59,571 bases of DNA. Origin: a virus. Its lineage: Duplodnaviria; Caudoviricetes. Each line of letters starts with the position of its first letter. Positions within the stretch are counted from its first letter, which is position 1. The notes under the pieces are model-generated. The model saw only the letters and a program-made list of their open reading frames with translations, did not search any database and was not told the origin of the DNA. Both the position numbers and the translations under genes were made by a program. Positions 14,019 to 47,436 of the stretch are shown piece after piece. Location: positions 1 to 59,571 of the IMG/VR virus record IMGVR_UViG_3300009108_000010; one strand, 5' to 3'.

Positions 14019-16344
14019 AAGTTTTATGTTGTTTATTTTCTTGAGCTATTTCCCATAAAGAAGCTACTAATGTATTCTCTCCATGAAAAGTAAAATCCAT
14101 TTCCATTTTTTGATCAGCAAAAGTTCTTTCACAATCTTGAGCCATAGCTAATAGTTCTCCTGTTGTCCAATAACTTTTATCCTTTACACCTACTTGAAAA
14201 TACTTTGGTCTTGGTTCTTCATCTTCAGCACCAGTAGTTTCTTTTTTCATTTCTTTAGTAGGTTCTTCCATATTACAATCAAAACCAAATAAATCAAAAG
14301 CTCTAAAGCCCATAGTGTGCATGATACCTATGGTTCTCATAGCAGCACACGTACCACCTGTTATAAGAGTAGCTCCTAGTGGTATACCTAACTCTTCATT
14401 TACTTTAACTGCATTATTTTGTATACCTTTTTTCTGTTCTTCAGGGTCTCTTAATGATTCTGTAAATGCGTGCCATCCCCATATGTTTGCATCTTTTTCT
14501 TTTAGATATTTTGTAACAGAAGGATCAGTCATAGAAGCTACAAAGAATTTAGTTTTCGAATCAACCTCTTTAAATAAATCTTTTCTTACTATACCATGTG
14601 TACTTGTACCTGTAATAGGTCTAGGATCAAGAACAACACAAGCCCAAGGTTGTATTCCATGTTTTAATAAATTTAAATAAGAATGTTTAACACATACAAT
14701 CTTTGCTTCACCATCATACTTTTTAATAGTAGCTTTTAATTCATCATAGTTTGTATAAGGTCCTCCTGAAACTATAATAGCTCTACCTGAATGATAAAGA
14801 TATTTTCCTAACCATTTTTTCTCATCTATTAAAGTCATATTCTCTTTTATATTATTACGTATATAATCTTTTGATACACAATCTCTAGGATTAACTACAA
14901 TAGGTACATTTAAAAGAGATTTAGGAATGTTAGATAATTTTTTATCATTTAAAATAATAGCTAGATGTGTGTGACCACCACCACGAACTTTATCTGCTGA
15001 AGGTAATACCCATTGTCTAATACTTTTATTCTTTTCTTTTTTAAGTTGATCTAATACTTTATTTGCACCTTGAAATTCTTCAGGAGTTTGATTACCATCT
15101 TTATCTTCTAAAAAATAATGATCAATCATAACAATAGGATTGTGTTTTAAATGTTTGTAATCACTTGCTACTGTTTTAATACTATTGCCACCACCTATTA
15201 AAACAAAGTCAGCATTTAAATCAGTACGATCTTTTAATATATCTCTGGAATTACCTTTACCTATTTCAAATGTAAATACTTTTTTATCTTTCATCATCTT
15301 AGCTCTAAATTCTTGTAGTCTTTTTATTACTGCAGACTGAGTATTATGAGCTTTAACATTAAATTCTTCTATATCTGTTTCAGTAGTAGCATCTTCAAAT
15401 AAATCAAAACCTTTATAAACTATTTCATCATGGTGTTTGAAAGAAGTAAGAGCCATTTCAATAGCACGACCTGCATTCCATGTACCTACTTCGATAATTG
15501 ATTTAGGTTTATACTCCTCTATAATTTCTAAAATTTGTTTATATCTCGTGGGCATAATATCTGGACTTGTATCATCATCAGATAAATTAAATAATCTTCT
15601 ACCAGAACTATCTCTAACAGGTAACATAGTTATATCTTGAATACCTTTAAAGTGCATAACATAATCAGATATACCATTCAAAGATATAATCTTCATTCCA
15701 TGTGCTTTATAAATATTTAATAATCTTTCTGTTATAAATGCATCATGCCATTCTCTATAAGAAATTAATTCTCCTGAATTATAAGCACCTCTTAAATCAC
15801 CTAGTAAATCAAGAGCAGGTTTTTTATTTAAATTAAAAGCCATAAAAGATGTATCAAGATATTGTACATTATCATCTGTTGTTCTGATACCTGCATAAGC
15901 TACATCACAAGCTTCAGGTAGCATAGCAAGTATATCATCAGATACTAATCTTTTCTTAGCAAAAGAATCAGCATCAATCCATATTAACCAACCTGCTTCT
16001 TTATCTTTTTCTGCTAATTCAAAAGCATATTCTGTTAGAGCATATACTTTATGTGCCCATCTGATAACATCAAGTCTCCAATTATAAGCAACTTGTCCAT
16101 TCTCTGTACCATCATGTATTGAATTAGTTTCTTTAAAAGTTTTATAATCTTCTATATTATCTAATTGTTTATAAGAAATAGATTTATTTTTAGGAAGAGA
16201 ATAACTTTCTAATGAACAGTCATGTGTATAACATGCAAGATTTAAAGAAGGTTCCCAATGTTCACTAATTGATTTTAAAAAATGATGTCCAACATTCTTT
16301 AAAATATCTTCATTAAATGAAGTAACAAAATTTATTTTTGTCAT
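13996..16344 (-). CDS. Three-domain fusion: GT-A glycosyltransferase-like + Methyltransf_24-like + Maf/MptE-like (DUF115)
   Basis: LIWIDAD (DxD); IIEVGTWNAG...GFDLFE...LIGGGNS; AIIVSGGP...ITGGTCAAMR...MGFRAFDLFGFD. Confidence 0.75.
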   Translation of the reverse strand: MTKINFVTSFNEDILKNVGHHFLKSISEHWEPSLNLACYTHDCSLESYSLPKNKSISYKQLDNIEDYKTFKETNSIHDGTENGQVAYNWRLDVIRWAHKVYALTEYAFELAEKDKEAGWLIWIDADSFAKKRLVSDDILAMLPEACDVAYAGIRTTDDNVQYLDTSFMAFNLNKKPALDLLGDLRGAYNSGELISYREWHDAFITERLLNIYKAHGMKIISLNGISDYVMHFKGIQDITMLPVRDSSGRRLFNLSDDDTSPDIMPTRYKQILEIIEEYKPKSIIEVGTWNAGRAIEMALTSFKHHDEIVYKGFDLFEDATTETDIEEFNVKAHNTQSAVIKRLQEFRAKMMKDKKVFTFEIGKGNSRDILKDRTDLNADFVLIGGGNSIKTVASDYKHLKHNPIVMIDHYFLEDKDGNQTPEEFQGANKVLDQLKKEKNKSIRQWVLPSADKVRGGGHTHLAIILNDKKLSNIPKSLLNVPIVVNPRDCVSKDYIRNNIKENMTLIDEKKWLGKYLYHSGRAIIVSGGPYTNYDELKATIKKYDGEAKIVCVKHSYLNLLKHGIQPWACVVLDPRPITGTSTHGIVRKDLFKEVDSKTKFFVASMTDPSVTKYLKEKDANIWGWHAFTESLRDPEEQKKGIQNNAVKVNEELGIPLGATLITGGTCAAMRTIGIMHTMGFRAFDLFGFDCNMEEPTKEMKKETTGAEDEEPRPKYFQVGVKDKSYWTTGELLAMAQDCERTFADQKMEMDFTFHGENTLVASLWEIAQENKQHKTFEEIFND

Positions 16345-17182: not shown

Positions 17183-17599
17183 TTACTGTATAGTAATGCT
17201 CTTTGGTTTTTGTTCTTCAGGTATATTATGTGTCAGACTAACAATCAATACACCATCTTCCATTCTAGCATCTTCAACTTCTATGTTTTCTGCTAGAGAA
17301 AATCTTTTATGAAAAGATCTTCGTGCTATATTCTTATGAAGATATTCTTCATTAGAATGTCGTTTATTAGAATCACCTTTAATAGTTAAGTATTGATCTT
17401 TAACCTCAAGATATAATTCATCTTTTTTAAAACCAGCAACTGCTAATTCTATAGTATATTTATCTTCTCCTGCTTTAACAATATCATAAGGTGGATAATC
17501 ATTACCAGCTAAGACATCATTATTTTGCAGAGCTACCATATGATCCATCAAATGATCAAATCCTATAGCATATCTATTTATGTTATGAAATAAACTCAT
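17183..17599 (-). CDS. hsp20: Small heat shock protein (Hsp20/IbpA-like)
   Basis: YPPYDI...IELAVAGF...YLHKNIARRSF...F.LA...A.MEDGVL.V.L...IPEE.KP..I.I. Confidence 0.95.
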   Translation of the reverse strand: MSLFHNINRYAIGFDHLMDHMVALQNNDVLAGNDYPPYDIVKAGEDKYTIELAVAGFKKDELYLEVKDQYLTIKGDSNKRHSNEEYLHKNIARRSFHKRFSLAENIEVEDARMEDGVLIVSLTHNIPEEQKPKSITIQ

Positions 17600-17815: not shown

Positions 17816-17995
17816 CTATCGTGTACTTAATATGCAATGTACTTGAGCATCCTCTATATTATATACCTCTTTAATTTCTTTTAAGACCCTTGCTTTCTCT
17901 TGTATACATTCTTCTTCTGTATTATACTCTTCTATTTGTAATTGAGGATCACTATTAAAAGAAACAAGTATATACAACAACCAAATTGTTTTCAT
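17816..17995 (-). CDS. Hypothetical protein (59 aa, not in ORF track)
   Basis: MKTIWLLYILVSFNSDPQ...; TAATG coupling with the RNR stop. Confidence 0.5.
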   Translation of the reverse strand: MKTIWLLYILVSFNSDPQLQIEEYNTEEECIQEKARVLKEIKEVYNIEDAQVHCILSTR

Positions 17996-19920
17996 TATAT
18001 ATCTACCAACTCACATACACCTGCAGTACAGGCAAGTTGTTGTGATCCTTTTGTATTATCACCTGTTTCAAAGTCTTGAAGTAAATTCCAATTTATTTTC
18101 GTTGGCATCTTCTTCATTAAACTATTATATTTTCTTTGAGTAATATCCTGATAAGGTGCTTGTTGATATGTATGATCAGAATGTGGTAAAAAAGATACAC
18201 CACTTAAATATTTAAAATTATTCCAACACCATGCACCCACAGGAACCCACTCTTCTTCTTTAACACTAATAGTTACAGAAGGTTTATGTTCACACCAATG
18301 TTCAGCATAAGTTCTCCATAGTTTTAATTGTTGAATAGCAGTCATATCATTACGACATACAGAACCTTTAGGAGCCATCATAGGAAAAGAAAATACAGTT
18401 GTATGTTCTGGTTTAAGATAATCAGGTTCATTGGGTATGCCAGATTCCCTCATAAATTGTGTAAGAGGATCTTTATTATCTCCTCGAACTGTTCTAAGAT
18501 AATAAGGATTATGTCTTGCATGTATACCACTAGCACTATCAACTAATTGACTAACAGTACCTGAAGGTTTAACACAAGTAATAGCAGTTGACTGAGGTAT
18601 ACCAAATTTATCTGACCATTCTTTATTTGTTTTAACAGCTACTTTTCTAAGAGTTTGTAATGTACTTTCTAATCCTGTTTCAGTTCCATTTAATACAGAA
18701 CTATCCATAATACCTGTAAGAGATACACCTAATAATCTTTCTTCTTCTGTATTATCAATCCATCTCTTCCTTAAATAACCAAAGTTTGTAAAGGTAGATT
18801 GTATTGTACCTAGTATGGTAGCTATTTTTATTTTATTTTTTAATGTATCTAGTGTATCTGTAGAACGACATACAACTTCAGTTAGATTACAGAATTGATT
18901 TGGTCTTAGTATAATTTCACTACAAGGATTAGTTCCAAAAGCTGCATCAGCATTTCTTCTACCATTTTGTTTTGCTTTTTCTTGAGCAGATGCTCTATTA
19001 AATATTCCACGTTCACCTGATTTACTTTCATATAAAGACAACCATTCTTTCATAAAAGTTCCTGTATCAGGTTGACCATCATAAACAGCAGAATTATTTG
19101 CTAATGCTCTCTCAGGATTTATGTTCCACCACTCTCCTTTTTTAGCTACTCTCATTCTATCATCAGATAAATTAGACAAAGATATTAATGCTGACCTTCT
19201 AACACCACCAACTACTACAACTTCTCCTGTCTTACAAGCTATATCATGGCACTCTAAACTGGTAAGCTTTCTACCTTTAGCATTTTTAAATTTATTAATA
19301 GTAAAATCAAATAAGTCTACTAAAGGTTGAGGACCACTTGCTCTACCACCAAATGTTTTTAATCTTGCACCTGCAGATCTTACTTTTGATACACTTATCT
19401 TAGGAATACGACAAGTATAAAGATATGATATTAAATCTCTAAATGCTCTAGCCCATCCTTCTTTAGAGTCAGCAACAGATATAACATCATCTGTATGTTC
19501 AAATTCTCTATCAGGTATAGTAGGTAAACCATTTATATATGGTCGTTCAACAGAAAATCCTACACCTGTTCCATTCATAAGAACATATAAAACTTCATCA
19601 AATGCTTTAGGACTATCAATAGGAATATAAGAACAATTATATCCTGCTATATGTTCTCTCTCTAATGCTTTACCTGAAGTCATTAAAGCTCTCATACTAG
19701 GCATAACATCTAAAGATAATATGGATTCTTCAAGCATATTCCATGCACTAGCATTTACCTTTGCTTCAATATTATTTTCAATATGATTTCTAAAAAATGT
19801 TATTAATCTATTAACAGTTTCTACCCACGTTTCTCTTCTTCTTTCTTCTTCTAACCATCTTGAGTATCTTGATAGATGTATAAATGATTGATATTCAGTA
19901 GGTAAATAATTATTTGCCAT
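17995..19920 (-). CDS. nrdJ: Class II (B12-dependent) ribonucleotide reductase
   Basis: MPSMR, YNCSY, GTGVGFS, VVGGVRRSA, GTNPCSEI, CNLTEV, TCVKPSGT, C-terminal CTAGVC; no beta-subunit gene present. Confidence 0.93.
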   Translation of the reverse strand: MANNYLPTEYQSFIHLSRYSRWLEEERRRETWVETVNRLITFFRNHIENNIEAKVNASAWNMLEESILSLDVMPSMRALMTSGKALEREHIAGYNCSYIPIDSPKAFDEVLYVLMNGTGVGFSVERPYINGLPTIPDREFEHTDDVISVADSKEGWARAFRDLISYLYTCRIPKISVSKVRSAGARLKTFGGRASGPQPLVDLFDFTINKFKNAKGRKLTSLECHDIACKTGEVVVVGGVRRSALISLSNLSDDRMRVAKKGEWWNINPERALANNSAVYDGQPDTGTFMKEWLSLYESKSGERGIFNRASAQEKAKQNGRRNADAAFGTNPCSEIILRPNQFCNLTEVVCRSTDTLDTLKNKIKIATILGTIQSTFTNFGYLRKRWIDNTEEERLLGVSLTGIMDSSVLNGTETGLESTLQTLRKVAVKTNKEWSDKFGIPQSTAITCVKPSGTVSQLVDSASGIHARHNPYYLRTVRGDNKDPLTQFMRESGIPNEPDYLKPEHTTVFSFPMMAPKGSVCRNDMTAIQQLKLWRTYAEHWCEHKPSVTISVKEEEWVPVGAWCWNNFKYLSGVSFLPHSDHTYQQAPYQDITQRKYNSLMKKMPTKINWNLLQDFETGDNTKGSQQLACTAGVCELVDI

Positions 19921-20538: not shown

Positions 20539-20769
20539 TCATTTTTCTTTTGGACTTATCTCGTCTTGGAATGCATTTTGCAACATATAAATAGCTTCTT
20601 CATTTTCAGCAGCTATTTTTATTTGCTTAATAAATTCATCAATAACTTGGGGATGTTCTCCTATACCAACAGGATGTTCCAAGTATATACGTGCAGTAGA
20701 AATAGCTTTATCTCTTGTTGATTCAAACTCAGATAATGCTGATTCATACATTGACTTTTTTACTGACAT
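20539..20769 (-). CDS. Hypothetical phage protein
   Basis: 76 aa; YLEHPVGIGEHP motif; SD aggagg. Confidence 0.65.
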   Translation of the reverse strand: MSVKKSMYESALSEFESTRDKAISTARIYLEHPVGIGEHPQVIDEFIKQIKIAAENEEAIYMLQNAFQDEISPKEK

Positions 20770-21520
20770 CTTTTACCTCCTTTCTTTTTTTCCAAATTAA
20801 TTTCATTTTTTTAGAAAGTATACCTTTAGTTTTATTTGAAATTGGATGACCTTTATGAGCTTTACTAAGTTTCTTTCTGGTTTCATCAGATACTTTATGT
20901 CCTAATAAAGATTGACGTATCTTTTCTTTTACTTCTGGTGGTCTACCATTACGACTTAATTTTTTTTGAAATTCACCTATCTTTTTTTTAGCTTCATCTG
21001 TTTGTTTCTTTCCAAACATACCATTATTAGAACCACTTAATTTCTCACTAAGTTTTTTTCTTGTTTCATCAGATACTTTCTGTCCTTTATGAGAGTCACT
21101 AAGTTTTTTTAAATAGTCAGGATCTTGATAACTTTCAACAGGTCTATAAAATTTACCACCTACATAAGAATTATAATAAGCAGGTTCATCTGTACCTTCT
21201 ATCACAGCAGTAAGTACATCCCATTTCATTTGATAGTATGCTTCATAGTATCGTAAACTTCTTTTGTTTTTATATTCTGCTATAACTTCAAAAGTAAAAT
21301 GTTCTTTACCTATCTTTTCTATATCAGCTTTAAGATACTTGGAAGAACCTATATAAGTTTCCCATTGCATTTTCTTTTTAGATTTACCTCTAAAATATTG
21401 CTTACAACCTACGTATGCTTTACCTGATTTCATATTGGTTATGATATAAACAAAACCAAACTTATCAAGATTAGGTACGAAAGATTCTTCAGTATCATAC
21501 CTAACCCAATGGTTTACCAT
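20744..21520 (-). CDS. GIY-YIG endonuclease with NUMOD3-type repeats (Seg-like homing endonuclease)
   Basis: GFVYIITN...YVGCK; repeated KVSDETRKKLS motifs. Confidence 0.8.
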   Translation of the reverse strand: MVNHWVRYDTEESFVPNLDKFGFVYIITNMKSGKAYVGCKQYFRGKSKKKMQWETYIGSSKYLKADIEKIGKEHFTFEVIAEYKNKRSLRYYEAYYQMKWDVLTAVIEGTDEPAYYNSYVGGKFYRPVESYQDPDYLKKLSDSHKGQKVSDETRKKLSEKLSGSNNGMFGKKQTDEAKKKIGEFQKKLSRNGRPPEVKEKIRQSLLGHKVSDETRKKLSKAHKGHPISNKTKGILSKKMKLIWKKRKEVKDVSKKVNV

Positions 21521-36950: not shown

Positions 36951-37064
36951 TATATATAATATATAAAGATTTAAAAACCACAAGTACATTATACTTTGTT
37001 TTTCATTTTTGTTTTTTGTTTTTCCTTATAAAAAATATAATAACATACAACAAGGATTATAACA

Positions 37065-38606
37065 TTGGAAACTATAGAGAACTCTATAGACATATCACCT
37101 CTTTTAACTCTTAATAATCTCTTAAATATTAAGGTTAAACAGGAATCTAAAGCAGATTTCCTAACATTTGTTCGCCAAATGGCTCCAAAGCTTGTTTCTG
37201 ATTGGAAGATGGGTAGACATATAGAGGTTATTAGTGAAAAATTACGACAATTAGAAGCTGGAGAGATAAAAAGACTCATGGTTTTTCTACCACCCAGGTC
37301 TTCTAAGTCTGTAATCTGTTCTAAATTGTTTCCTGCATGGTATATTGGAAGGAATCCAGAACATGAGATACTTACTGTTTCCCATAGTGACCAGCTTTCA
37401 AGTGATTTTGGTCGTTCTGTCAGAGATTTGGTCAATGAAGAAGATTTTCAGAATGTTTTCAAAGGAGTGTCCTTACGTACAGATGTACGAGCAGCAGGTA
37501 AATGGAAGACAAATGTGGGAGGAACCTACTATGCTGCTGGAGTACGATCCCAGATTGCAGGAAGAGGTGCACACATTGCGATCCTTGATGATGTCATGTC
37601 AGAAGAGGATTCATACTCTGAAGCAGGCAGAAGATACGTTAAGGAATGGTATCCAGCAGGACTAAGAACACGTATTATGCCCAATGGTTCCATATTAATA
37701 ATAAATACAAGGTATCATTATGATGATCTTTGTGGATGGTTACTAAAACAACAAGAAAATGTAGGAGATTATGCTGTAACTCCTTGGGATGTAGTAAGAA
37801 TACCAGCATGGCTTGACGAAAATGCAGCAGAATTACTTAATTTACCTATAGGTTCTAGTTATTTTCCAGAATGGAAGCCAGAAGAAGTATTAAAAGTAGA
37901 TGAATCAGAAATAAAAGCATCAAATGGTGCACGATATTGGAATGCATTGTATATGCAGGACCCAACTCCTGATGAAGGTGGTTTAATTAAAAAGAAATGG
38001 ATACGTTGGTGGGAATATGATGAACCACCTCCATGTGATTTTATAATACAAACATATGATACAGCATTTTCTACTAAGACAACAGCAGATTATAGTGTCA
38101 TACAAACATGGGGTATATTCTCCATGTATGATCAGGATGAAGATGGGTATGAAAATTATCAATCCAATTTACTTTTATTAGGAAATATAAAAGGTAGATT
38201 TGAATATCCAGAATTAAGACGTATGGCTCAATTATTGTACCATGAACATAAACCTGATGTTTGTATGATAGAAAAGAAAGCATCAGGACAATCATTAATA
38301 CAAGATATGCGTAGATCTGGTGTACCTGTATTAGAATATTTACCTGATAAAGATAAAGTATCCAGAGTTTATGCAGCATCTCCTATGATGGAATCAGGTC
38401 GTGTATGGATACCAAAAAATAAGAAGTGGTCAGAAGATTTACTGGAAGAAATGTTAAGGTTTCCCAATGCTGCACATGATGATCAGGTAGATGCTATGAC
38501 CATGGCAATACATTATATGAAAGAGTCTTGGCACCTATCACATCCAGAAGATCCTGATTGGGAAGATGAACCTAGAAAGAAAAAGGTTGCATACTGGCGA
38601 ACTTAG
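37065..38606 (+). CDS. terL: Terminase large subunit
   Basis: Walker A-like PPRSSKS, Walker B AILDD, TRYHYDDL, ALYMQDP, nuclease YDTAF...DYS, IEKKASG, HDDQVDA; TTG start. Confidence 0.95.
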   Translation: METIENSIDISPLLTLNNLLNIKVKQESKADFLTFVRQMAPKLVSDWKMGRHIEVISEKLRQLEAGEIKRLMVFLPPRSSKSVICSKLFPAWYIGRNPEHEILTVSHSDQLSSDFGRSVRDLVNEEDFQNVFKGVSLRTDVRAAGKWKTNVGGTYYAAGVRSQIAGRGAHIAILDDVMSEEDSYSEAGRRYVKEWYPAGLRTRIMPNGSILIINTRYHYDDLCGWLLKQQENVGDYAVTPWDVVRIPAWLDENAAELLNLPIGSSYFPEWKPEEVLKVDESEIKASNGARYWNALYMQDPTPDEGGLIKKKWIRWWEYDEPPPCDFIIQTYDTAFSTKTTADYSVIQTWGIFSMYDQDEDGYENYQSNLLLLGNIKGRFEYPELRRMAQLLYHEHKPDVCMIEKKASGQSLIQDMRRSGVPVLEYLPDKDKVSRVYAASPMMESGRVWIPKNKKWSEDLLEEMLRFPNAAHDDQVDAMTMAIHYMKESWHLSHPEDPDWEDEPRKKKVAYWRT

Positions 38607-38615
38607 TGGTATAAT
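38587..38615 (+). promoter_or_regulatory. sigma70 promoter upstream of the 402-aa gene and portal
   Basis: TTGCAT-17 bp-TATAAT with TGn extension. Confidence 0.65.
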
Positions 38616-38643
38616 AGATAGTATATAGGGGAAATTCAATATA

Positions 38644-39852
38644 ATGGCTGATGGTTTACGTTCACTTAAATATGGTATTGGTGATCAAACAACTTCAAAT
38701 CTTACAAAACAGGATTTGAAGAACATGGGATTACTTTCAGCACAAATGCTTCCTATGTCTGATATAGCAAGAGAAACTGGACTATCAAGTATAGAACCTA
38801 CTATCTATCAGGATCTAAAAAATAAAAGATACATGGATGCATTATTAAAAGGTATTAGTACTGCAGGAGATGTTGGTACAGGTACAGGAGCTGTAATGAT
38901 GGCTACAGGAGCTGGTGCACCCATAGGAGCAGCAGTAATAGGTGCAAGTCAATTAGCTAAGTTAGCTGCTAAAATGGCTAGTAAAACTAAAGTACCAGAA
39001 ATAGCAAAAGATTTAAATACTACAGAAGCAATAACTGGATATATTATTGATCCTGCTAAACTTTCTCGAAATCAATTAATAGCTAAAATAGAAAATAATA
39101 AAGAAATAAAAACTAAAACAACTAACTATTTAGATGAACAAGGATATGGTGATACTATTCCAGTTTATAGAATTATTTCTGTACAAGATAAAACAGCAGG
39201 ACTTCCAGGAAGACAAAAAGTAATAGAAAAAGCAGAAATAGGAAAAGAAAGTTTAATATCAGGATCACTTACTCCAGAAGCTAATTTAAAAACTATAAAA
39301 TTTTTTCAAGATAAAGGAGCTACGCAACAACAAATAGTTCGTTATGATGTTCCTAGAAATAAGATTAAACTAACTATGGGTAGTATTAAAGATGATATTA
39401 AACAAAATGTTAATAAAAAATTAAAACAAAAAGGTTTTGGTCAAGAAAAAATATCTGGTGTTGAAACTATAACTAATCCAAGTAAATCAGCAAAAAATCT
39501 TATTGATATGCAAGAAGAAATTATTGCTGATGTTTCTGGATTAAAACAAACTGTTTTAGGAAGTCCACAAGATTTAGTACCTATTGATGTTAATAGAATA
39601 TTAAGTGGTGAAATAAAAACTTTTAAAGATTTTAAAAAGAATCTTCCTTCCAGTTTTAGTTATGCATCACTAGAAGATTTGGACAAATTATTTAATAAAA
39701 AAATATCTTTAGATGAATTTCGTAAAATTGAAAATGCTAAAACAAAAGAAGCTTTTGATAAAATTGTAGATTTTTATGGTATTAAAATAAAGAAAAACCA
39801 AGGGGGTATGATCATGCGTGATCCATATAAGAGAGAAGCGAGGTTTATATAA
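38644..39852 (+). CDS. Variable protein between terL and portal; candidate ADP-ribosyltransferase-like domain
   Basis: Gly/Ala-rich hydrophobic N-part; VYR...SGSLT...RYDVP...QEEII pattern; C-terminal KNQGG. Confidence 0.5.
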   Translation: MADGLRSLKYGIGDQTTSNLTKQDLKNMGLLSAQMLPMSDIARETGLSSIEPTIYQDLKNKRYMDALLKGISTAGDVGTGTGAVMMATGAGAPIGAAVIGASQLAKLAAKMASKTKVPEIAKDLNTTEAITGYIIDPAKLSRNQLIAKIENNKEIKTKTTNYLDEQGYGDTIPVYRIISVQDKTAGLPGRQKVIEKAEIGKESLISGSLTPEANLKTIKFFQDKGATQQQIVRYDVPRNKIKLTMGSIKDDIKQNVNKKLKQKGFGQEKISGVETITNPSKSAKNLIDMQEEIIADVSGLKQTVLGSPQDLVPIDVNRILSGEIKTFKDFKKNLPSSFSYASLEDLDKLFNKKISLDEFRKIENAKTKEAFDKIVDFYGIKIKKNQGGMIMRDPYKREARFI

Positions 39853-42410
39853 TGGCAACAGAACGTAATCCATTTGAACAGATACCAGAAGAAGTATCAA
39901 ACGTAGTTAATATACCAAAACCTGAAGAAGCTACAATGGCACAACCAACATTTGAAATGGATACAGATGGTGGTGTTATTGTTGATCTTGAAGGTACATC
40001 ACCAGAAATGGGAGCTGAAGAATCTGTACAAGAATGGTATGGTAATTTAGTTGATACATTAGATGAAGAACAAATAACAACTATAGCAACTGAAGTTATT
40101 GATTGTTTTACATCAGATAGAGATTCTCGACAAGAATGGGAGTCTATGTTTGAAAGAGGATTTGATTTATTAGGATTAAAAATACAAGATTCATCAGAAC
40201 CATTTGAAGGTGCATGTACAGCAGTACATCCTATGTTAATTGAATCTGCTGTTAAATTTCAATCAAAAGCTATACAAGAATTATTTCCACCTTCAGGTCC
40301 AGTTAAAGCACATATACTAGGTAAGACTACTCCTGAAAGAGAAGATCAAGCTAATCGTGTACAAGAATTTATGAACTATCAAACAACAGAGCAGATGCCT
40401 GAATACTTTGATGAGTTTGAAAGAATGCTGTTCCACCTCCCTTTAATAGGATCAGCATTTAAAAAAGTTTATTATGATGCAACATTAAAAAGACCAGTAT
40501 CTGAATTTGTTCCTATTGATCAATTCTATGTATCTTATTATGCATCTAATCTAAAAAAAGCAGATAGATATACACATGTAATATATAGAAGTCCTGTTGA
40601 TCTTGCAAAAGATATACGATCAGGAATATATAGTGATATAGAATTACCAGATGCAACAAATCCACAACCTACATCATTTTCTTCTAAAATGGATACTATA
40701 TTAGGATTATCACCTACAGAAAATAATGATCCTCAATATACATTACTAGAACAACATTGTTATCTAGAAATAGAAGAAGACTATGCTCTTCCTTATATTG
40801 TTACAGTTGAAGAGCAATCAAAACAAATTTTAAGTATTCGTAGAAACTATAAGAAGGATGATAAGAATCAAGAAAAAGTCTCGCACTTTGTACATTATAG
40901 ATTCGTTCCAGGATTTGGTTTCTATGGATTTGGTCTCATGCACTTCTTAGGAAATCTTACTATGACTGCTACAGCAGCTATGAGAAGTCTAGTGGATGCA
41001 GGTCAATTCGCAAACTTGCCAGGAGGATTTAAAGCAAAAGGTGTAAGGATTGTTGGTGATAATGAACCAATAAGTCCAGGTGAGTTCAAAGAAGTAGAAG
41101 CAACAGGACAAGATTTGAATAAGGCAATTATCTCTCTCCCTTATAAAGAACCTTCCTCAACTCTTTTCCAAATGTTGGGCTTTGTAACTGCAGCAGGACA
41201 GAAGTTTGCAGACAGTACAGAACAAATAGTTTCTGATGCTGCATCTTATGGACCTGTTGGAACGACTATGGCATTACTTGAAGCATCAAGTAAGTTCTTC
41301 TCTGCTATACATAAGAGATTACATAAATCTCAAAGAGATGAATTTAAAATACTTGCAAGAATCAATTATGATTACTTACCTTCAGAGTATCCATATGAAG
41401 TTCCTTTTGCTGAAAAAAGTGTAATGAAACAAGACTTTGATGGAAGAGTGGATGTTATCCCTGTCTCAGATCCTAATATTCCATCAAATGCACATAGAAT
41501 GATGATTGCACAAATGGCTTTACAAATGGCACAGCAATCACCTCCTGGTATGTTTAATCTAGAAGCATTAAATAGAACTATTTTAAATTCTGCTAATATG
41601 CCTAATCTAGAAGAAGTATTACCACCAAAACAAGAACCACAAGAGATGGACCCAGTATCTGATATTATGGCTGCTACTAAAGGTATACCTATTGCAGCAT
41701 TTGCTGGACAAAACCATGATGCACATATACAAACAAAGATGGCATACTTACAAGACCCACAGAATGGTGCTAATCCTATAATGGCTAGATTAAAACCAAT
41801 ATTAGAAGCAAATATACAAGAACATTCTGTTATGAAATATCAAGAACAAATGAATGGAATGGCAAGAATAGCAATGGAACAAATGCCACCTGAACAACAA
41901 AAAGATCCTAAAGTTGCAGAAGCAGCTATGGCTACTGCAGCACAACAAGTATTAAATGCAAATCAAGCTATGGGTCAAGCACAATCACCTGAACAACAAA
42001 TGGTAGCTTTAGAACAAGCTAAAGTAGAATTAGAGAAACAGAAGCTACAAGCAACATCTGCTAAGTATTCTGCAGATTCTGCATTAGATGCACAGAAATT
42101 GGAATTAGAGGAAGCTAAATTATTAGTGGAATCTGGTAAAGCTGGTCAAGATGCAATATTGAAAAAAGAAAAGTCTGATCTTGATAGAGAAAGTAAAGAA
42201 ACTATGAAAGCTCTTGATAATCTAACTAAAACAATTATTGCAGATCAGAAAGCTGAAATTGATCTAGAGAAAATTCGTATGACTGCTCTAGAGAAAATTT
42301 CACAAATGGAAGATCTAGATAGTAGACAACGAAGTTTAAAACTTATAGATATTATGATGGATCTATTAAAAGAAGAAATGAAAGGAGAAAATAATGCCAA
42401 TAGGGAATAA
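39852..42410 (+). CDS. Portal protein (P22-like, long barrel)
   Basis: 852 aa after terL; PFEGAC.AVHP, FMNYQ, GSAFKKVYYD, GFYGFGL, PVGTTMALLE; Q-rich helical C-terminus. Confidence 0.88.
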   Translation: MATERNPFEQIPEEVSNVVNIPKPEEATMAQPTFEMDTDGGVIVDLEGTSPEMGAEESVQEWYGNLVDTLDEEQITTIATEVIDCFTSDRDSRQEWESMFERGFDLLGLKIQDSSEPFEGACTAVHPMLIESAVKFQSKAIQELFPPSGPVKAHILGKTTPEREDQANRVQEFMNYQTTEQMPEYFDEFERMLFHLPLIGSAFKKVYYDATLKRPVSEFVPIDQFYVSYYASNLKKADRYTHVIYRSPVDLAKDIRSGIYSDIELPDATNPQPTSFSSKMDTILGLSPTENNDPQYTLLEQHCYLEIEEDYALPYIVTVEEQSKQILSIRRNYKKDDKNQEKVSHFVHYRFVPGFGFYGFGLMHFLGNLTMTATAAMRSLVDAGQFANLPGGFKAKGVRIVGDNEPISPGEFKEVEATGQDLNKAIISLPYKEPSSTLFQMLGFVTAAGQKFADSTEQIVSDAASYGPVGTTMALLEASSKFFSAIHKRLHKSQRDEFKILARINYDYLPSEYPYEVPFAEKSVMKQDFDGRVDVIPVSDPNIPSNAHRMMIAQMALQMAQQSPPGMFNLEALNRTILNSANMPNLEEVLPPKQEPQEMDPVSDIMAATKGIPIAAFAGQNHDAHIQTKMAYLQDPQNGANPIMARLKPILEANIQEHSVMKYQEQMNGMARIAMEQMPPEQQKDPKVAEAAMATAAQQVLNANQAMGQAQSPEQQMVALEQAKVELEKQKLQATSAKYSADSALDAQKLELEEAKLLVESGKAGQDAILKKEKSDLDRESKETMKALDNLTKTIIADQKAEIDLEKIRMTALEKISQMEDLDSRQRSLKLIDIMMDLLKEEMKGENNANRE

Positions 42411-42600
42411 AGCATATCCTGTTGATAAAGGTATTACTAATGGTAAACCTATGCATGTACCTAATAAAGATGGTGGTTTGTATGGAGATTATACTAAGAT
42501 GTCACAAAGTGACTATGGTAGTAGACCTAAAAAAGGTGTAACTTTAAAATGGGAAGATAAAGCTTGGAAATATCCAAGTCCTACGAAAGGAAAAAGATAA
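42394..42600 (+). CDS. Hypothetical protein
   Basis: 68 aa, SD aaggag. Confidence 0.55.
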   Translation: MPIGNKAYPVDKGITNGKPMHVPNKDGGLYGDYTKMSQSDYGSRPKKGVTLKWEDKAWKYPSPTKGKR

Positions 42601-42674
42601 TGTGGACTAAACCTAATATTAAAGAAATATCTGTTGGATTAGAAATTAACTGCTATATGTGTGCAGAAATCTAA
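42600..42674 (+). CDS. pqqA: PQQ precursor peptide PqqA-like (24 aa, not in ORF track)
   Basis: MWTKPNIKEISVGLEINCYMCAEI: W-x-x-P start, G-x-E-x-x-x-Y core; TAATG coupling and SD aagga; fills the intergenic gap. Confidence 0.85.
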   Translation: MWTKPNIKEISVGLEINCYMCAEI

Positions 42675-42678
42675 TTAA

Positions 42679-42876
42679 ATGGAAATATGGGATGAGGTTG
42701 TTAAAGAATTTAATGACGAACTCAATAAATTAAGAACTGGTGTTTGTGAAGGGCAATCAGATAATTTTGCTCATTACAGACAAATGGTTGGGCACATTTA
42801 TGGAATTGAATGGTCCAGAAATAAACTAACAGATATTGTTAAAAAACGTATCTATTCAGATGAAGAGGAAGACTAA
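42679..42876 (+). CDS. Hypothetical protein preceding groES
   Basis: Y.Q.VG.I.G motif; coupled to groES. Confidence 0.65.
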   Translation: MEIWDEVVKEFNDELNKLRTGVCEGQSDNFAHYRQMVGHIYGIEWSRNKLTDIVKKRIYSDEEED

Positions 42877-43301
42877 TGCAACAGGTATCATTAGCTAAGA
42901 CTATTAAGAATGATATGTGGATTACAGAAGAAGATCAAAGTGATCCAAATATTCTACCTGAACTTCCAGGTTTTCATGTACTCGTAAGACCTGTCTCAAT
43001 TAAAGAAAAGACAAAAGGTGGTATACTATTACCTGATTCAACAAAGGAAGACATGTCCTATCTTACTACAGTAGGTCGTGTGGTAGCTCTAGGAGATTTA
43101 GCTTATCAAGATAAAGATAAATTTCCTAAAGGTGAATGGTGTAAAAAAGGTGATTATGTTTGTTATGGAAAACATTCAGGTCAAAAGATAAAATATAAGG
43201 GTATTCGTCTTATATTATTATTTGATGATCAAATTATTATGCGTGTGGAACATCCAAAAGATCTAGATCCAACCTTTAATTTACATGCAGGTAGTGCATA
43301 A
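42876..43301 (+). CDS. groES: Co-chaperonin GroES-like
   Basis: VLVRP...EKTKGGILLPD...VGRVVALG.LAY...GDYV.YGK.SG...L.DD.I. Confidence 0.9.
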   Translation: MQQVSLAKTIKNDMWITEEDQSDPNILPELPGFHVLVRPVSIKEKTKGGILLPDSTKEDMSYLTTVGRVVALGDLAYQDKDKFPKGEWCKKGDYVCYGKHSGQKIKYKGIRLILLFDDQIIMRVEHPKDLDPTFNLHAGSA

Positions 43302-43304
43302 AAC

Positions 43305-43333
43305 TTGCACTAACTCAATTTTTGTAGTATAAT
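43305..43333 (+). promoter_or_regulatory. sigma70 promoter for the scaffold/capsid operon
   Basis: TTGCAC-17 bp-TATAAT. Confidence 0.7.
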
Positions 43334-43384
43334 ATAAGGTATATACGTAAGTCGTATGTCTCGTAAACAACGAAAGGAAGAACT

Positions 43385-44362
43385 ATGTCTGAAGAAGAAA
43401 AAAAAGAAGAATGGGATGAAGTCGTTCCAGAAAAAAAAGAAGAAAAAGAAAAAGTAGAATATGAAGTAGAAGGAGAAGAAAATGAAAAAATTAAAACTAC
43501 TTCGTCTACTAAAGAAAAAGAAGAATTTCCAAAAGAAGAAGTACCCAAAGAGCTTGAAGGTATTGAAACTAAAGGAGCACAAAAGCGAATACGTCAATTA
43601 GTTAAACAACGTAAAGAACGTGATGAACATATTGCTCAAGTTATACAACAAAATGAACAATTATCACATCAATTAAATCAGGTTAATCAACAATTTACAA
43701 ATGCTAGAGGAGTAAATTTAGATACTACTGAAAAACAATTAGCTGATAAATTAGTGTTAGCACGTAATGCTTATAAAGTTGCACATGAAGAAGGTGATTC
43801 TCAAAAAGTTTTACAAGCTCAAGAAATACTAAATGATGTACAAACTGATTTAAAATCAGTACAAATACATAAACAACAGTTTCAACAGCAGCCACAACAA
43901 ACTCAAGGTATAGGTAGACAACAACCACAATATCAACCTCAACCTACACCTGATCCTCAAGCACAAGATTGGGCATCAAAAAATGAATGGTTTGGTGCTG
44001 ATAGAGTAATGACTGCTGCTGCATTAGCAATAGATGCAGAATTAAAAGAAGAAGGTTTTAGTCCTACAGAACCTGAATTTTATCAGGAAGTTAATAATAG
44101 GATAAAAGAAACATTTCCTCATAAGTTTTCAACAACCAACGAGGAAGTTCGTCAGCAGGGGAAAACGTCATCTCCTGCTCAAGTAGTAGCTGGAGCATCT
44201 CGCAGCTCTCCAGGTTCTAATAAAAAAGTTAAACTATCTAAAGAAGATATTCGTTTAGCTAATAAATGGAATGTACCACTTGAAAAGTATGCAGAAGAAA
44301 AACTAAAAGCTGATAAAGCTGAAGGTGAGTATACTACAATTAATATGCAGCGTGGAGGATAA
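43385..44362 (+). CDS. Capsid scaffolding protein
   Basis: Acidic N-terminus, coiled coil (QKRIRQL), DP.A..W...N.WFG, C-terminal VPLEKYA; upstream of the MCP. Confidence 0.7.
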   Translation: MSEEEKKEEWDEVVPEKKEEKEKVEYEVEGEENEKIKTTSSTKEKEEFPKEEVPKELEGIETKGAQKRIRQLVKQRKERDEHIAQVIQQNEQLSHQLNQVNQQFTNARGVNLDTTEKQLADKLVLARNAYKVAHEEGDSQKVLQAQEILNDVQTDLKSVQIHKQQFQQQPQQTQGIGRQQPQYQPQPTPDPQAQDWASKNEWFGADRVMTAAALAIDAELKEEGFSPTEPEFYQEVNNRIKETFPHKFSTTNEEVRQQGKTSSPAQVVAGASRSSPGSNKKVKLSKEDIRLANKWNVPLEKYAEEKLKADKAEGEYTTINMQRGG

Positions 44363-44366
44363 AGTT

Positions 44367-44858
44367 ATGACACGAACAAATACACGTAGTTCTGAAGCTC
44401 GTGAGAACTTAGATAGAGAAACAACTGAATATACTTTTGAGGAGCAAGATGCTCTTCATATTCCTGAAGCAGTTACAAATCGTTTCGCCAACGAAGGTAT
44501 GACTCTTGGATGGTTAAGAATAACTCTTAAAGGTCAAGAAGATTATAAATACATAGGTAAGAAATTGCAAGAAGGATGGGAGTTTGTTTCAAAAGACGAA
44601 GTTCCTGAACTTGGATCAACATCTGTCGTTAGGGATGAAGGTAGATATGCTGGAGCAATCTGTCGTGGAGATATTGCATTAGGAAAAATTCCTACTAGAA
44701 TCTACAAAGCTAGAAGTGAACACTATAGAAAAAAATCTGATCAGTTAATGGATGCAGTTAATTCACAACTGATGAGAGGTAATAATTCTAGAATGCCCAT
44801 TTCTAATACTAGTAAAACACAAACAATAAAAGGGCGAACACCTAGATTTCAGGAATAG
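44367..44858 (+). CDS. Head-associated protein
   Basis: Likely start MTRTNTR after SD ggagga; W.R...EGWEFV motif. Confidence 0.6.
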   Translation: MTRTNTRSSEARENLDRETTEYTFEEQDALHIPEAVTNRFANEGMTLGWLRITLKGQEDYKYIGKKLQEGWEFVSKDEVPELGSTSVVRDEGRYAGAICRGDIALGKIPTRIYKARSEHYRKKSDQLMDAVNSQLMRGNNSRMPISNTSKTQTIKGRTPRFQE

Positions 44859-44881
44859 TCCTTTAGAAAAGGAGACAAAAC

Positions 44882-45496
44882 ATGTCAACAACTAAAGCGT
44901 TTCGTGGTTTTGTTCCTGCTCGTAAAAAAGATGGAGCTTATAATACTGGTTCCTTTACGCAGATTTTCTCACCTACTTCAGGTGGTGCTTGTAATAATAA
45001 TATTTTTACTGGCGATCCTGTAGTTTTACCTGGTGCTAATCTTGCTACTATTCAACCACATGTGGCTGGTACGCTAAAACCCTCTGGGATTTTTGCTGGC
45101 TGCTCATATGTATATAATGGAGAGCAAAAGTTTAGTAGGTATTGGGGTACAGGAACCTCTGCGAATGGATATTCAGATGTTAAGTTCTTTATCATAACTG
45201 ATCCAAATCAGACATATTACATCCAATGTAGTCTGTCTTTGTCTGCAAACGAACTAATGGTTGTTAAAAACTATAATGTAACTGTAAGTTCAACTGCAAG
45301 TTCTGGTGATACCACAACTGGTCAGTCAAGCTACTATATGTTAGCAGCGAGTGGAGCAGAATCTGAACAACAACTAAGAGTCATAGGTAAGAAGCAAGAT
45401 GATGGAGAAGCTGATTCAGATGCTTATCCTATTGTGGAAGTATGGCTAAACATGCATAGAGATCGCTACGTTACAGCGACTGCATCTTCAGCATAG
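44882..45496 (+). CDS. Minor capsid/decoration-like protein
   Basis: GFVP...IFTGDPV...G.F.GC.Y...DP...Y.IQ...G.S; directly upstream of the MCP. Confidence 0.6.
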   Translation: MSTTKAFRGFVPARKKDGAYNTGSFTQIFSPTSGGACNNNIFTGDPVVLPGANLATIQPHVAGTLKPSGIFAGCSYVYNGEQKFSRYWGTGTSANGYSDVKFFIITDPNQTYYIQCSLSLSANELMVVKNYNVTVSSTASSGDTTTGQSSYYMLAASGAESEQQLRVIGKKQDDGEADSDAYPIVEVWLNMHRDRYVTATASSA

Positions 45497-45510
45497 AAAG
45501 GAAATAGAAA

Positions 45511-46419
45511 ATGGCTATAAATAGATCGAGTATCGCCAAAGAACTCCTTCCTGGATTGAACGCAGTCTTTGGAACAGAGTATGGCGAAGTTAATGATGAG
45601 CACAAACCATTATTTGAAATAGAAAATTCTGATCGAGCATTCGAGGAAGAAGTTCTATTTACAGGTTTTGGTACTGCTCCAGATAAAACAGAAGGTGCTG
45701 CTGTAAGTTATGATGACGCACAAGAATCATATACAGCTCGTTATGATAACGAAACAGTAGCTCTAGCTTTTGCAGTAACAGAGGAAGCTATGGAGGATAA
45801 CCTCTATGATACTTTCGCTAAGTTACGTGCAAAAGGTCTTGCAAGAGCAATGGCAAATACCAAGCAAGTAAAAGCTGCTAAAGTCTTTAATAATGGCTTT
45901 ACTGCTGGAGCTTCTGCTATTGGTGATGGTGTAGCATTCTTTAGTGCTTCTCACCCAACTATTGCTGATGGAACTCAAGACAATAGAGCATCTGCTGCAG
46001 CAATAGCTGAAGGTACTTTAGAAAGTGCAGTAATTCAAATACAGAAAACAAAAGATGATAGAGGTATCTTAATTGGTGCTTCTGCAGTATCTTTACATGT
46101 TCCTGTTGATTTACTATTTACAGCAGATCAATTATTAAATACTCCAGGTACACCTGGTGGATCTAATAATGACATCAATGCTGTAAGACACTTGGGAGTA
46201 TTTCCAGATGGCTTCTTCGTAAACAGACGTTTTACTGATACCAATGCTTGGTTCATTAAAACTGATGTACCTAATGGTACTAAGATGTTTACAAGAACAC
46301 CTTTACAAACTAAAATGGAACCAGACTTCGATACTGGCAACCTAAGATTTAAAGCACGTGAAAGATATTCTTTTGGTGTTTCAGATTGGCGTGGCTGGTA
46401 TGGTAATGCTGGTGCATAA
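45511..46419 (+). CDS. Major capsid protein
   Basis: MAINR...KELLPGLNA.FG.EY, SDRAFEEEV, ITEEA-like VTEEAMEDNLY, FDTGNLRFKARERYSFG.SDWR. Confidence 0.9.
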   Translation: MAINRSSIAKELLPGLNAVFGTEYGEVNDEHKPLFEIENSDRAFEEEVLFTGFGTAPDKTEGAAVSYDDAQESYTARYDNETVALAFAVTEEAMEDNLYDTFAKLRAKGLARAMANTKQVKAAKVFNNGFTAGASAIGDGVAFFSASHPTIADGTQDNRASAAAIAEGTLESAVIQIQKTKDDRGILIGASAVSLHVPVDLLFTADQLLNTPGTPGGSNNDINAVRHLGVFPDGFFVNRRFTDTNAWFIKTDVPNGTKMFTRTPLQTKMEPDFDTGNLRFKARERYSFGVSDWRGWYGNAGA

Positions 46420-46431
46420 ACTATAGTATAT

Positions 46432-46459
46432 GAGAGAGGATAAGAAATTATTCTCTCTC
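46432..46459 (+). terminator. Hairpin after the MCP gene
   Basis: gagagaggataa-GAAA-ttattctctctc; weak U-tract suggests partial read-through. Confidence 0.6.
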
Positions 46460-46481
46460 TATACACTTTAAAGGAAGAAAT

Positions 46482-46751
46482 ATGGCAACAAATATTACAT
46501 CAAAATTTTTAGCAGGTACTGGTGTTATTGTTACAACATCTAATACTTCTCGTATTATAGGTTTACATGTATATTCTACAGTTAATGGAACTTTTGATAT
46601 TACTGATAGTGGTGGAAGTAAAATAAAATTTCAAGTTCCTGCAAGTGGACAAGCAGATATTTATATAGGAGAAATGGGTATTAGGTGTGATGCAACAGTA
46701 TGTTGTTCAGCTCCAGGTGCTAATGGTGGCGTAACTTTATTATTAGGATAA
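46482..46751 (+). CDS. Small virion protein
   Basis: 89 aa beta-rich, after the MCP. Confidence 0.55.
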   Translation: MATNITSKFLAGTGVIVTTSNTSRIIGLHVYSTVNGTFDITDSGGSKIKFQVPASGQADIYIGEMGIRCDATVCCSAPGANGGVTLLLG

Positions 46752-46755
46752 TTAC

Positions 46756-47436
46756 ATGCCAGCTTATTCTTATCTTAAAGATGACATTATAAATACAATA
46801 GAGAATAATTCAACAGAGTTTTCAGATCATATTCCTTATATGATTGAAAAAGCTGAAAATCGTTTAATGAAAGAATTAGATGATTCAGGGCTTGATTATT
46901 ATTCTTCATTTACATTTACAGCTTCAGATCCAGTAGTAAGTTTACCTGCTGGAGCATTAGTTATACGTAATGTAAATTTTAAAACAAGTGCTTCATCTAA
47001 TATAATTCCTTTACTACAAAGGTCTTATGAATATGCAATAGACTTTTGGGGATATGCAAGTGCATCTACTGGTACTCCCAGATACTATGCACGAAAAAAT
47101 AATACATCAATTTATATAGTACCTACTCCTGCATCAACATTAACAGGAGAAATTCAATATACAAAAAGACCATTAGCTTTATCAAGTGCAACAGGTACAA
47201 GTGCAACAACTTCTAATTACTTTAGTGAGTTTTGTTACAATGCTTTATTTAATGCATGTATGATAGAAGCTAATTATTTTATAAAAGATTTTAATACTAT
47301 TCAAGTTTGGGAAGGTAAGTATAAAAATTCCATAGATGGATTACGTAATCAAGCTAGACGTACTAGACAGGATGATATGGAAAGTCCAGCTAGTCCTGCT
47401 GGTGGTCCTAATCCAGTTCTACAAGGAGCTAACTAA
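46756..47436 (+). CDS. Head-tail adaptor-like protein
   Basis: Y..L...I...I..AE.R...G.P.YYA...I..P.P...EA..F.K pattern. Confidence 0.6.
   Translation: MPAYSYLKDDIINTIENNSTEFSDHIPYMIEKAENRLMKELDDSGLDYYSSFTFTASDPVVSLPAGALVIRNVNFKTSASSNIIPLLQRSYEYAIDFWGYASASTGTPRYYARKNNTSIYIVPTPASTLTGEIQYTKRPLALSSATGTSATTSNYFSEFCYNALFNACMIEANYFIKDFNTIQVWEGKYKNSIDGLRNQARRTRQDDMESPASPAGGPNPVLQGAN

Follow-up and report, generated by a model that had tools for sequence, protein, structure and literature searches.

Why should a tailed phage carry a gene for the peptide from which bacteria make a redox cofactor, and carry none of the genes that turn this peptide into the cofactor? The question is raised by a DNA stretch of 59,571 bases that constitutes one IMG/VR virus record (IMGVR_UViG_3300009108_000010, hereafter the window), in which a 24-codon open reading frame (ORF) at 42600-42674 of the plus strand encodes a peptide resembling PqqA, the precursor of pyrroloquinoline quinone (PQQ). 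Periplasmic alcohol, methanol and sugar dehydrogenases use PQQ as their cofactor. It is built from a Glu and a Tyr of PqqA, the first carbon-carbon bond being made by PqqE together with the chaperone PqqD; one PqqA peptide is spent per PQQ molecule and PqqB to PqqE act as catalysts. Since one peptide is used per PQQ, PqqA is the sole part of the pathway that needs continuous re-making. Here we show that the ORF is a pqqA gene, and we argue that it is probably a precursor-only auxiliary metabolic gene (AMG) that feeds the PQQ enzymes of the host, captured by a marine HTVC023P-type podophage from a PQQ-producing host lineage.

An initial annotation of the window had described a 24-codon ORF with this peptide and had assigned it to PqqA. 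Translation confirms the peptide, and both curated models of the family recognize it over their full length: it reaches 29.9 bits with PF08042, whose gathering score is 21.1 (E 5.3e-7, profile positions 1-19 of 19), and 32.3 bits with TIGR02107, where the cut-off is 20 (E 6.3e-8, model positions 1-21 of 21). A six-frame search finds this single PqqA place in the whole 59,571-base record (E 5.5e-8) and none in 14 control genomes. With 24 residues the peptide lies within the about 20-30 of PqqA, and E15-I-N-C-Y19 has the E-x-x-x-Y spacing. The W-x-x-P leader is presumably the part of PqqA that PqqD recognizes; its W2 and P5 do not vary among 90 distinct viral DNAs and the motif is also found in 106 cellular copies, among the matches listed. 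PHROGs hold no family for the peptide, a phmmer search of PDB at E<=10 yielded no match, and neither did tblastn against 50,697 GenBank phage records at E<=10, a search which is insensitive at 24 residues and missed the copy of phage Melnitz described below. Thus, 42600-42674 is a genuine pqqA gene and its resemblance to PqqA is not due to chance. The local arrangement that had been described is equally accurate (Table 1): pqqA fills the gap between a 68-codon gene that follows the portal gene (p68) and a 65-codon gene that precedes groES (p65), its start codon overlaps the p68 stop codon in a TAATG, and it is preceded by a Shine-Dalgarno-like (SD) motif. The TAATG overlap is also found in relatives L004, L006 and L007.

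The initial annotation had seen no processing genes, and this holds as well. No PqqB, PqqC, PqqD or PqqE match is found in the six frames of the window at E<=1, and Pfam scans identify no radical S-adenosylmethionine (SAM) or PQQ genes among 37 window ORFs. The PqqC search evidently works, because its model matches all five candidate host genomes described below; it matches none of the 14 control genomes. Fifteen larger pqqA-bearing viral records, two of which are 97-100% complete, contain neither PqqE nor PqqD nor PQQ alcohol dehydrogenase (0/15 each), and tblastn with PqqC, PqqD and PqqE from one candidate host matches 0 of 312 viral loci (2.46 Mb in total) versus 63 of 120 cellular loci. 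It follows that the viral copies stand truly alone and are no fragments of host operons. The window copy shares the length of 24 residues, the W-x-x-P leader and the E-x-x-x-Y core with cellular PqqA of the alphaproteobacterial type (PF08042/TIGR02107), but it is flanked by phage head genes instead of lying beside pqqBCDE. That association is an operon habit of cellular genes and no trait of the peptide itself, and hosts too have unlinked copies.

Conservation was studied in relatives that were fetched by portal homology, so that the sample is not biased towards pqqA. The best 80 of 598 viral-contig stretches with a portal relative (69-95% identity) were used, and presence of pqqA was scored by means of a motif-free BLOSUM scan of both strands. 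This resulted in two clean classes: 26 of the 80 loci have a 24-mer scoring 98-128, and the best score of the other 54 is 31 or lower. All 26 positive loci contain complete 24-codon ORFs 3' of the portal gene. Including the window, the selection set consists of 27 portal-ascertained copies corresponding to 24 distinct DNAs and 21 peptides. Variable sites number 10, 7 and 20 at codon positions 1, 2 and 3 (of 24 each). For core codons 12-19 the corresponding numbers are 1, 0 and 8 of 8, with zero amino-acid change and synonymous variation at all eight codons. The ratio of nonsynonymous to synonymous polymorphism (pN/pS) is 0.225 overall; codons 2-11 give 0.50 and codons 12-24 give 0.10. The frame, Glu15 and Tyr19 are kept in 27/27 copies, all of which have a purine-rich SD (AGGAG-, AAGGA- or GGGAG-like) at similar distance 5'. 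Hence pqqA is under strong purifying selection in the phage lineage. The relatives' portal-groES interval and the selective regime had both been named initially as places to check the PqqA identity, and at both it stands.

The gene is at the same time readily exchanged. Of 58 loci that span the whole interval from portal end to p65 start, 24 have pqqA and 34 lack it. When presence and absence are mapped onto a FastTree phylogeny of the 58 portals, at least 10 changes of state are required, eight of them forced by well-supported branches; shuffled labels require a mean of 18.5 changes and none of 500 shuffles is as low as 10. The portals of L034 and L036 are nearly identical and their pqqA state differs. 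In the nearest relative, L003 (93% portal identity), an empty site consists of the p68 TAA, three bases and the p65 ATG, the cassette of ~80 nt being cleanly missing. We conclude that pqqA is a selected but readily exchanged accessory gene, and since it is frequently lost its benefit must be conditional. A tie to the flanking small genes was ruled out: p65 lies directly 3' of pqqA in every pqqA-bearing portal relative, but p65 and GroES occur in both classes, and p68 also occurs with and without pqqA according to tblastn. Small accessory genes in general cluster at the portal-to-GroES hot spot (42411-42678 in the window), with portal-to-p65 distances from -8 to 1895 nt among the 58 relatives; HTVC027P has about eleven small ORFs in it.

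How far does the gene extend beyond these relatives? A scan of IMG/VR by DNA back-translation of the alphaproteobacterial-type core identified at least 119 stretches, and a complete PqqA ORF is present in 110 of 112 new viral loci among the matches listed. At least 48 of those loci show an HTVC023P-like head module around pqqA, and five of these 48 have pqqA between TerL and portal rather than after the portal. At least 62 further loci share nothing with the head proteins of the window. The contexts of these 62 were determined by gene-family clustering and PHROG scans and comprise, among the matches listed, TerS together with a TerL that shares about 49% identity with its counterparts in the Roseobacter phages CRP-9 and CRP-212 and in the Pelagibacter phages HTVC115P and HTVC033P (HMO-2011/HTVC103P-like); a gp59-like helicase loader, PhoH and an exonuclease; and a tail protein and baseplate hub with best matches in the myophages Melnitz, HTVC008M and Mosig. 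The TIGR02107 search detects no pqqA in the five nearest GenBank relatives of the window phage (HTVC023P, HTVC027P, 023Pt_psg01, CRP-901 and DSL-LC04), and among six representatives of the other contexts it detects pqqA in Melnitz and none in HTVC008M, Mosig, CRP-9, HTVC115P and HTVC033P. The ten negative phages have SAR11, Roseobacter, gammaproteobacterial or unknown hosts.

Melnitz is a cultured phage of the methylotroph strain H5P1 (Methylophilales, OM43). Its pqqA is unannotated, the record placing a minus-strand hypothetical coding sequence (CDS), MelnitzEXVC044M_152, over the site just 5' of the tRNA-Leu and gp5 baseplate hub genes. Like the window phage it is a lytic marine phage with a solitary pqqA and a strong SD; unlike it, Melnitz is a myovirus, the gene lies near gp5 and tRNA-Leu, and the peptide has the core F-G-F-E-V-T-M-Y of the beta/gamma-proteobacterial type. 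A second scan of IMG/VR for this core (G-F-E-V-T-M-Y) returned at least 120 stretches, and all 120 viral loci among the matches listed have a PqqA ORF, with a G+C of 30-47%. Phage hallmark matches are found in 24 of these 120 listed loci, including the major head protein (20), GroES (9) and portal (7) of the window. Among the other 96 listed, RecE-like exonuclease, the annealing proteins Sak and Erf, replication initiator, primase-helicase, TerL, DNA polymerase exonuclease and Hsp20 are the large neighbours met most often. Phage pqqA hence falls into at least two peptide classes, and for Melnitz, the single cultured case, class and host agree. Several unrelated phage groups have each acquired the gene, and independent capture extends to both peptide classes.

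Which bacteria might provide the enzymes? A motif scan of 185,579 species genomes gave at least 120 stretches; 106 of 120 cellular loci hold a PqqA ORF and most of these are titled Alphaproteobacteria, among the matches listed, which agrees with the alphaproteobacterial type initially assigned to the peptide. None of the 120 cellular loci listed contains relatives of the TerL, portal, GroES or head proteins of the window. At least 24 of the cellular loci form an AT-rich subset (28-39% G+C) with 24-residue peptides that are one residue off (Ala for Ser at position 11) from those of phages whose portals are 84-87% identical to that of the window. The AT-rich loci come from metagenome-assembled genomes (MAGs) and single amplified genomes titled Rhodospirillaceae, Pelagibacterales, Alphaproteobacteria or MarineAlpha9, the last of which is described as a separate streamlined AT-rich taxon (PMC8879329). 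For 137 viral copies of the alphaproteobacterial type, the nearest cellular peptide among the matches listed is found only in AT-rich loci (n=26) in 83 cases, is tied in 37 and is GC-rich in 17.

The marine alphaproteobacterial genomes behind five of the AT-rich loci measure 1.1-1.7 Mb; PqqE scores over cut-off in four of the five and in 22 of 41 relatives of one. Four of the original five and one of the 41 relatives were taken as candidate hosts, and all five contain contiguous PqqA, B, C, D and E, each over cut-off (e.g. G004:C10 35522-38818). The initial prediction of a PQQ-producing host is thereby borne out for plausible hosts. PQQ alcohol dehydrogenases (TIGR03075) are over cut-off in five of six candidate genomes, with up to four full-length paralogues of >400 bits in one genome of 1.6 Mb, and GSDH-type sugar dehydrogenases are also present in five of six. 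Membrane glucose dehydrogenase (TIGR03074) is over cut-off in none of the six, its weaker matches being the same genes as those of TIGR03075. The dehydrogenase genes do not lie beside the pqq operon. Three of the five candidate hosts have a second pqqA that is unlinked to pqqBCDE, which suggests that precursor dosage matters. The unlinked places are L133 4252-4326 (G004:C28), G001:C10 and G006:C79; the L133 copy lies between genes for a LysR regulator and a major facilitator superfamily transporter, with oxidoreductase genes also near. Two MAGs show two motif matches each (L110 and L117; L108 and L156).

Two other lineages were considered as hosts. TMED127/Methylaequorales have a methylotrophy island in which tetrahydromethanopterin (H4MPT)-linked C1 genes adjoin xoxF and pqq (PMC12542740), but methylotrophs of this type are not supported as host: Fae (PF08714) is found in none of the six candidate genomes, which are therefore not H4MPT methylotrophs of the TMED127 kind. 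AEGEAN-169/HIMB59 fits by G+C (PMC10308909) but was not confirmed, the term PQQ being absent from the main texts of PMC10308909 and PMC10734472.

These data allow a mechanism to be proposed. A pqqA cassette of ~80 nt would have been inserted into the variable slot between portal and GroES, where the gene would be translated from the structural-gene transcript via its own SD and the TAATG coupling. The phage would make the peptide only; binding it and joining its Glu15 to Tyr19 would fall to host PqqD and PqqE, and finishing PQQ to host PqqB, PqqC and a peptidase. PqqA supply would be the first to fail once the phage shuts down host gene expression, and the phage copy would keep PQQ flowing to periplasmic quinoprotein dehydrogenases, providing respiratory energy during infection. 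We infer that pqqA is transcribed and translated, that the host enzymes accept its product and that PqqA supply is limiting. Cyanophage psbA is a classical turnover-type AMG, and the likeness is that the phage supplies the fastest-consumed component and relies on long-lived host machinery. The difference is that psbA encodes a structural protein of a complex whereas the pqqA product is a substrate that is converted into a small-molecule cofactor. Supply of precursor to host enzymes had been suggested in the initial annotation and is the best-supported reading of the gene, although the function itself is deduced from sequence comparison.

Several observations weigh against this proposal. The pattern-based scans keep the core motif constant by design. 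Phages readily lose pqqA, as the at least 10 changes of state and its absence from L003 demonstrate. With its place in a late structural operon the gene may come into play late for an energetic benefit, which is a mild argument; in other phage groups pqqA is found in replication or packaging modules. The window peptide is a diverged variant (Thr3, Lys4, Asn6, Met20), and Met20 occurs in none of 105 sampled cellular copies. Its nearest cellular peptides among the matches listed are those of GC-rich alphaproteobacteria with 18/23 residues, the best AT-rich peptide having 17/23, and the best DNA identity of the window pqqA to a cellular copy is 54/72, among the matches listed. Two things only, the 31% G+C of the phage and the peptides of related phages, point to the host of the window phage itself.

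Could the peptide act as a decoy or inhibitor instead? It would then occupy host PqqD or PqqE without yielding PQQ and bring PQQ synthesis to a halt, perhaps to spare SAM, or, in a variant covered by the same estimate, interfere with a host function that relies on a PqqD-type peptide-binding domain. The lack of any phage-encoded processing enzyme would suit a decoy, as would two differences: at leader position 11 the phage copies have Ser, His, Gln or another residue where candidate hosts have Ala, and 10 of 90 distinct viral DNAs encode Met at position 20. However, the phage copies never vary at a residue that cellular PqqA keeps constant (W2, P5, E9, G13, E15 and Y19), the two that are spent among them, and a decoy would need the leader only, yet core and tail evolve more slowly than the leader. 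Because these residues are kept and core and tail evolve slowest, a substrate fits better, and we consider a decoy unlikely. We find it no likelier that PQQ is made for a benefit other than energy, be it as antioxidant or public good or by closing a PqqU-type TonB-dependent receptor to superinfecting phages. According to PMC12124388, PQQ keeps a coliphage that targets PqqU from infecting, and PQQ is secreted by the bacteria that make it, but this has no link to the phage group of the window, and the heavy investment of the candidate hosts in PQQ dehydrogenases fits the energy reading more simply.

That pqqA is passenger DNA, a recently captured host fragment without function in the phage, would account for its patchy distribution and frequent loss and for the very small size of a cassette found in a variable slot. 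Against this stand the strong coding signature over 24 distinct DNAs, the SD kept in all copies, and the independent captures in several unrelated phage groups and two peptide classes. The best viral-cellular pqqA DNA identity among the matches listed is only 66/72, which argues that the transfers are not recent, and neither a dN/dS near 1 nor frequent frame disruptions are seen. Passenger DNA is thus quite unlikely. The remaining alternative is that this small ORF is fortuitous, or that it serves the GroES operon as a leader or regulatory peptide and merely looks like PqqA; 24 codons are indeed few and fall below the cut-off of the ORF caller. This is extremely improbable: the full-length matches to two curated models (E 5e-7 to 6e-8), the 0/14 control genomes and the close relative L003, which has p65 and GroES without pqqA, all speak against it. 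Model scores and codon pattern in practice refute this alternative.

The novelty of a phage-borne PQQ precursor had been overrated in the initial annotation, since a virus-encoded PqqA appeared in print in 2020 and viral pqqA is also mentioned in PMC13188868, as passages of the two papers attest. In the relevant passages of Coutinho et al. (2020, PMC7678222), viral population VP_266 of Lake Baikal has a virus-encoded PqqA together with a viral methanol dehydrogenase, and the peptide is proposed to boost PQQ-dependent oxidation in the host. The likeness is the phage-borne precursor peptide. VP_266, as described there, is however a freshwater virus predicted to infect methylotrophs, whereas the window phage is apparently a marine HTVC023P-type podovirus. 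Unlike VP_266, it encodes no PQQ enzyme according to the window Pfam scans, nor do the 15 larger records, and instead of a single case the gene recurs in hundreds of contigs. Viral pqqA, pqqD and pqqE have also been listed among phosphorus-cycling AMGs in reservoir sediments (PMC13188868). A literature search that covered main texts found no viral pqqA reports other than these two. The main texts of the HTVC023P-type papers (PMC9599517; bioRxiv 10.1101/2019.12.14.876532), taken without their supplements, do not mention pqqA. It is equally absent from the main texts of the OM43 phage paper and of the global-ocean AMG catalogue (PMC11360552), the supplementary AMG tables of which may list PqqA; the main text of the Melnitz paper (PMC9004378) has PQQ only as a medium supplement, at 1 nM. 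Virus-encoded PqqA is therefore already known but far more widespread than reported. What is new is the member in the HTVC023P-type group, the range of phages and of peptide classes involved, the strict lack of genes for processing, a candidate lineage of hosts, and a copy that had gone unannotated in a phage under culture.

PQQ dehydrogenases dominate the energy metabolism of several streamlined marine bacteria, and a precursor-only gene of about 80 nt would be a very economical way to sustain a host pathway, marking the step that the phage expects to fail first. With its small size pqqA is too short for gene callers and hence missing from annotations, even in cultured Melnitz. As its presence predicts a PQQ-producing host it is usable as a host marker, and the Melnitz-OM43 system makes the hypothesis directly testable. 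A broader picture, which we hold to be rather unlikely as a whole, would be that pqqA is among the most widespread yet uncalled auxiliary genes of aquatic phages, with host-class-matched copies in the HTVC023P-type, HMO-2011/HTVC103P-like and Melnitz/HTVC008M-like groups, that PQQ of infected cells is under phage control, that lysis is a major source of dissolved PQQ for scavengers and that PQQ receptors are perhaps closed to competitors. If true, viral lysis would feed PQQ-scavenging bacteria with dissolved cofactor.

The record is 99% complete according to CheckV. G+C varies from about 24 to 38% along the window, 31% being given for the phage, and no tRNA genes were found in it. Since TerL, portal, GroES and the major capsid protein (MCP) surround pqqA, a host-derived metabolic gene lies inside a bona fide phage genome. 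Among the 50,697 GenBank phage records the portal is best matched (38-41% identity) by those of 023Pt_psg01, of the Pelagibacter phages HTVC023P and HTVC027P, and of the Roseobacter phage CRP-901, and megablast of 37000-47000 against GenBank phage records gave no match at DNA level. The head module of TerL, portal, GroES and MCP is shared with the HTVC023P-type podoviruses, as is the genome size of about 55-60 kb. Given a portal identity of ~40% and no match at DNA level, the window phage appears to be a distant member of this group, which bioRxiv 10.1101/2019.12.14.876532 calls the most abundant known marine viral group and for which PMC9599517 gives GroES as a core gene. Pfam matches among the 37 ORFs include, for replication and repair, family A DNA polymerase, primase-helicase, class II ribonucleotide reductase and endonuclease VII, for mobile elements and modification, a GIY-YIG homing endonuclease and methyltransferases, and besides these HSP20, a cell-wall hydrolase and TerS.

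Table 1. Position of pqqA, its signals and neighbours, other genes of the window, and the pqqA gene of phage Melnitz.
Feature	Position	Strand	Remarks
pqqA	42600-42674	+	24 codons and TAA; ATG 42600, TAA 42672-42674; both PqqA models passed; leader W2-x-x-P5, E9, core V12-G-L-E15-I-N-C-Y19, C21
SD-like AAAGGA	42586-42591	+	8 nt 5' of pqqA ATG
TAATG stop/start overlap	42598-42602	+	TAA of p68 (42598-42600) overlaps pqqA ATG
p68	42394-42600	+	68 codons; accessory gene; no match in Pfam, NCBIfam or PHROG
p65	42679-42876	+	65 codons; core gene; starts four bases after pqqA stop; abuts GroES
GroES co-chaperonin	42876-43301	+	Cpn10, E 1e-12; phrog_3188
Portal	39852-42410	+	phrog_1216, E 1.4e-40; query for retrieving relatives
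TerL	37065-38606	+	phrog_38
Major head protein	45511-46419	+	phrog_371
TerS	11729-12145	-	
Methyltransferase	13317-14018		
MptE-like-domain protein	13996-16344	-	782 residues; domain at residues 496-691
HSP20/alpha-crystallin	17183-17599	-	E 4e-21
Class II ribonucleotide reductase	17995-19920	-	B12-type; matched by Pfam in pieces only
Homing endonuclease	20744-21520	-	SegE-like, GIY-YIG/NUMOD3
Melnitz pqqA	MZ577097.1 76140-76196	+	24 codons; beta/gamma type; 31.6 bits; AAGGAGG 8 nt upstream

Parts of 39800-46500 were found in 20 sequencing runs, six of which are RNA libraries with small shares. Contigs of four RNA libraries, compared at 90% likeness, cover parts of the portal gene and of 44.1-46.4 kb, with an identity to the window of 99-100% in X16 and X17. 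No listed piece from an RNA library spans 42600-42674; as these are assembled contigs only, DNA carry-over is possible and gaps are uninformative. A contig of RNA library X18 matches the window from 42678, at the start of p65, but its preceding 255 letters are unlike the window, which suggests that in a related phage another gene occupies the pqqA slot.

Some further genes of the window deserve mention. It has two chaperone genes, HSP20/alpha-crystallin and GroES, the latter bearing an N-terminal extension of ~30 residues. The homing endonuclease gene lies near that of the class II ribonucleotide reductase, and the methyltransferase gene adjoins the gene with the MptE-like (6-hydroxymethylpterin diphosphokinase-like) domain. 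TerS is encoded on the strand opposite to TerL and ~25 kb away from it.

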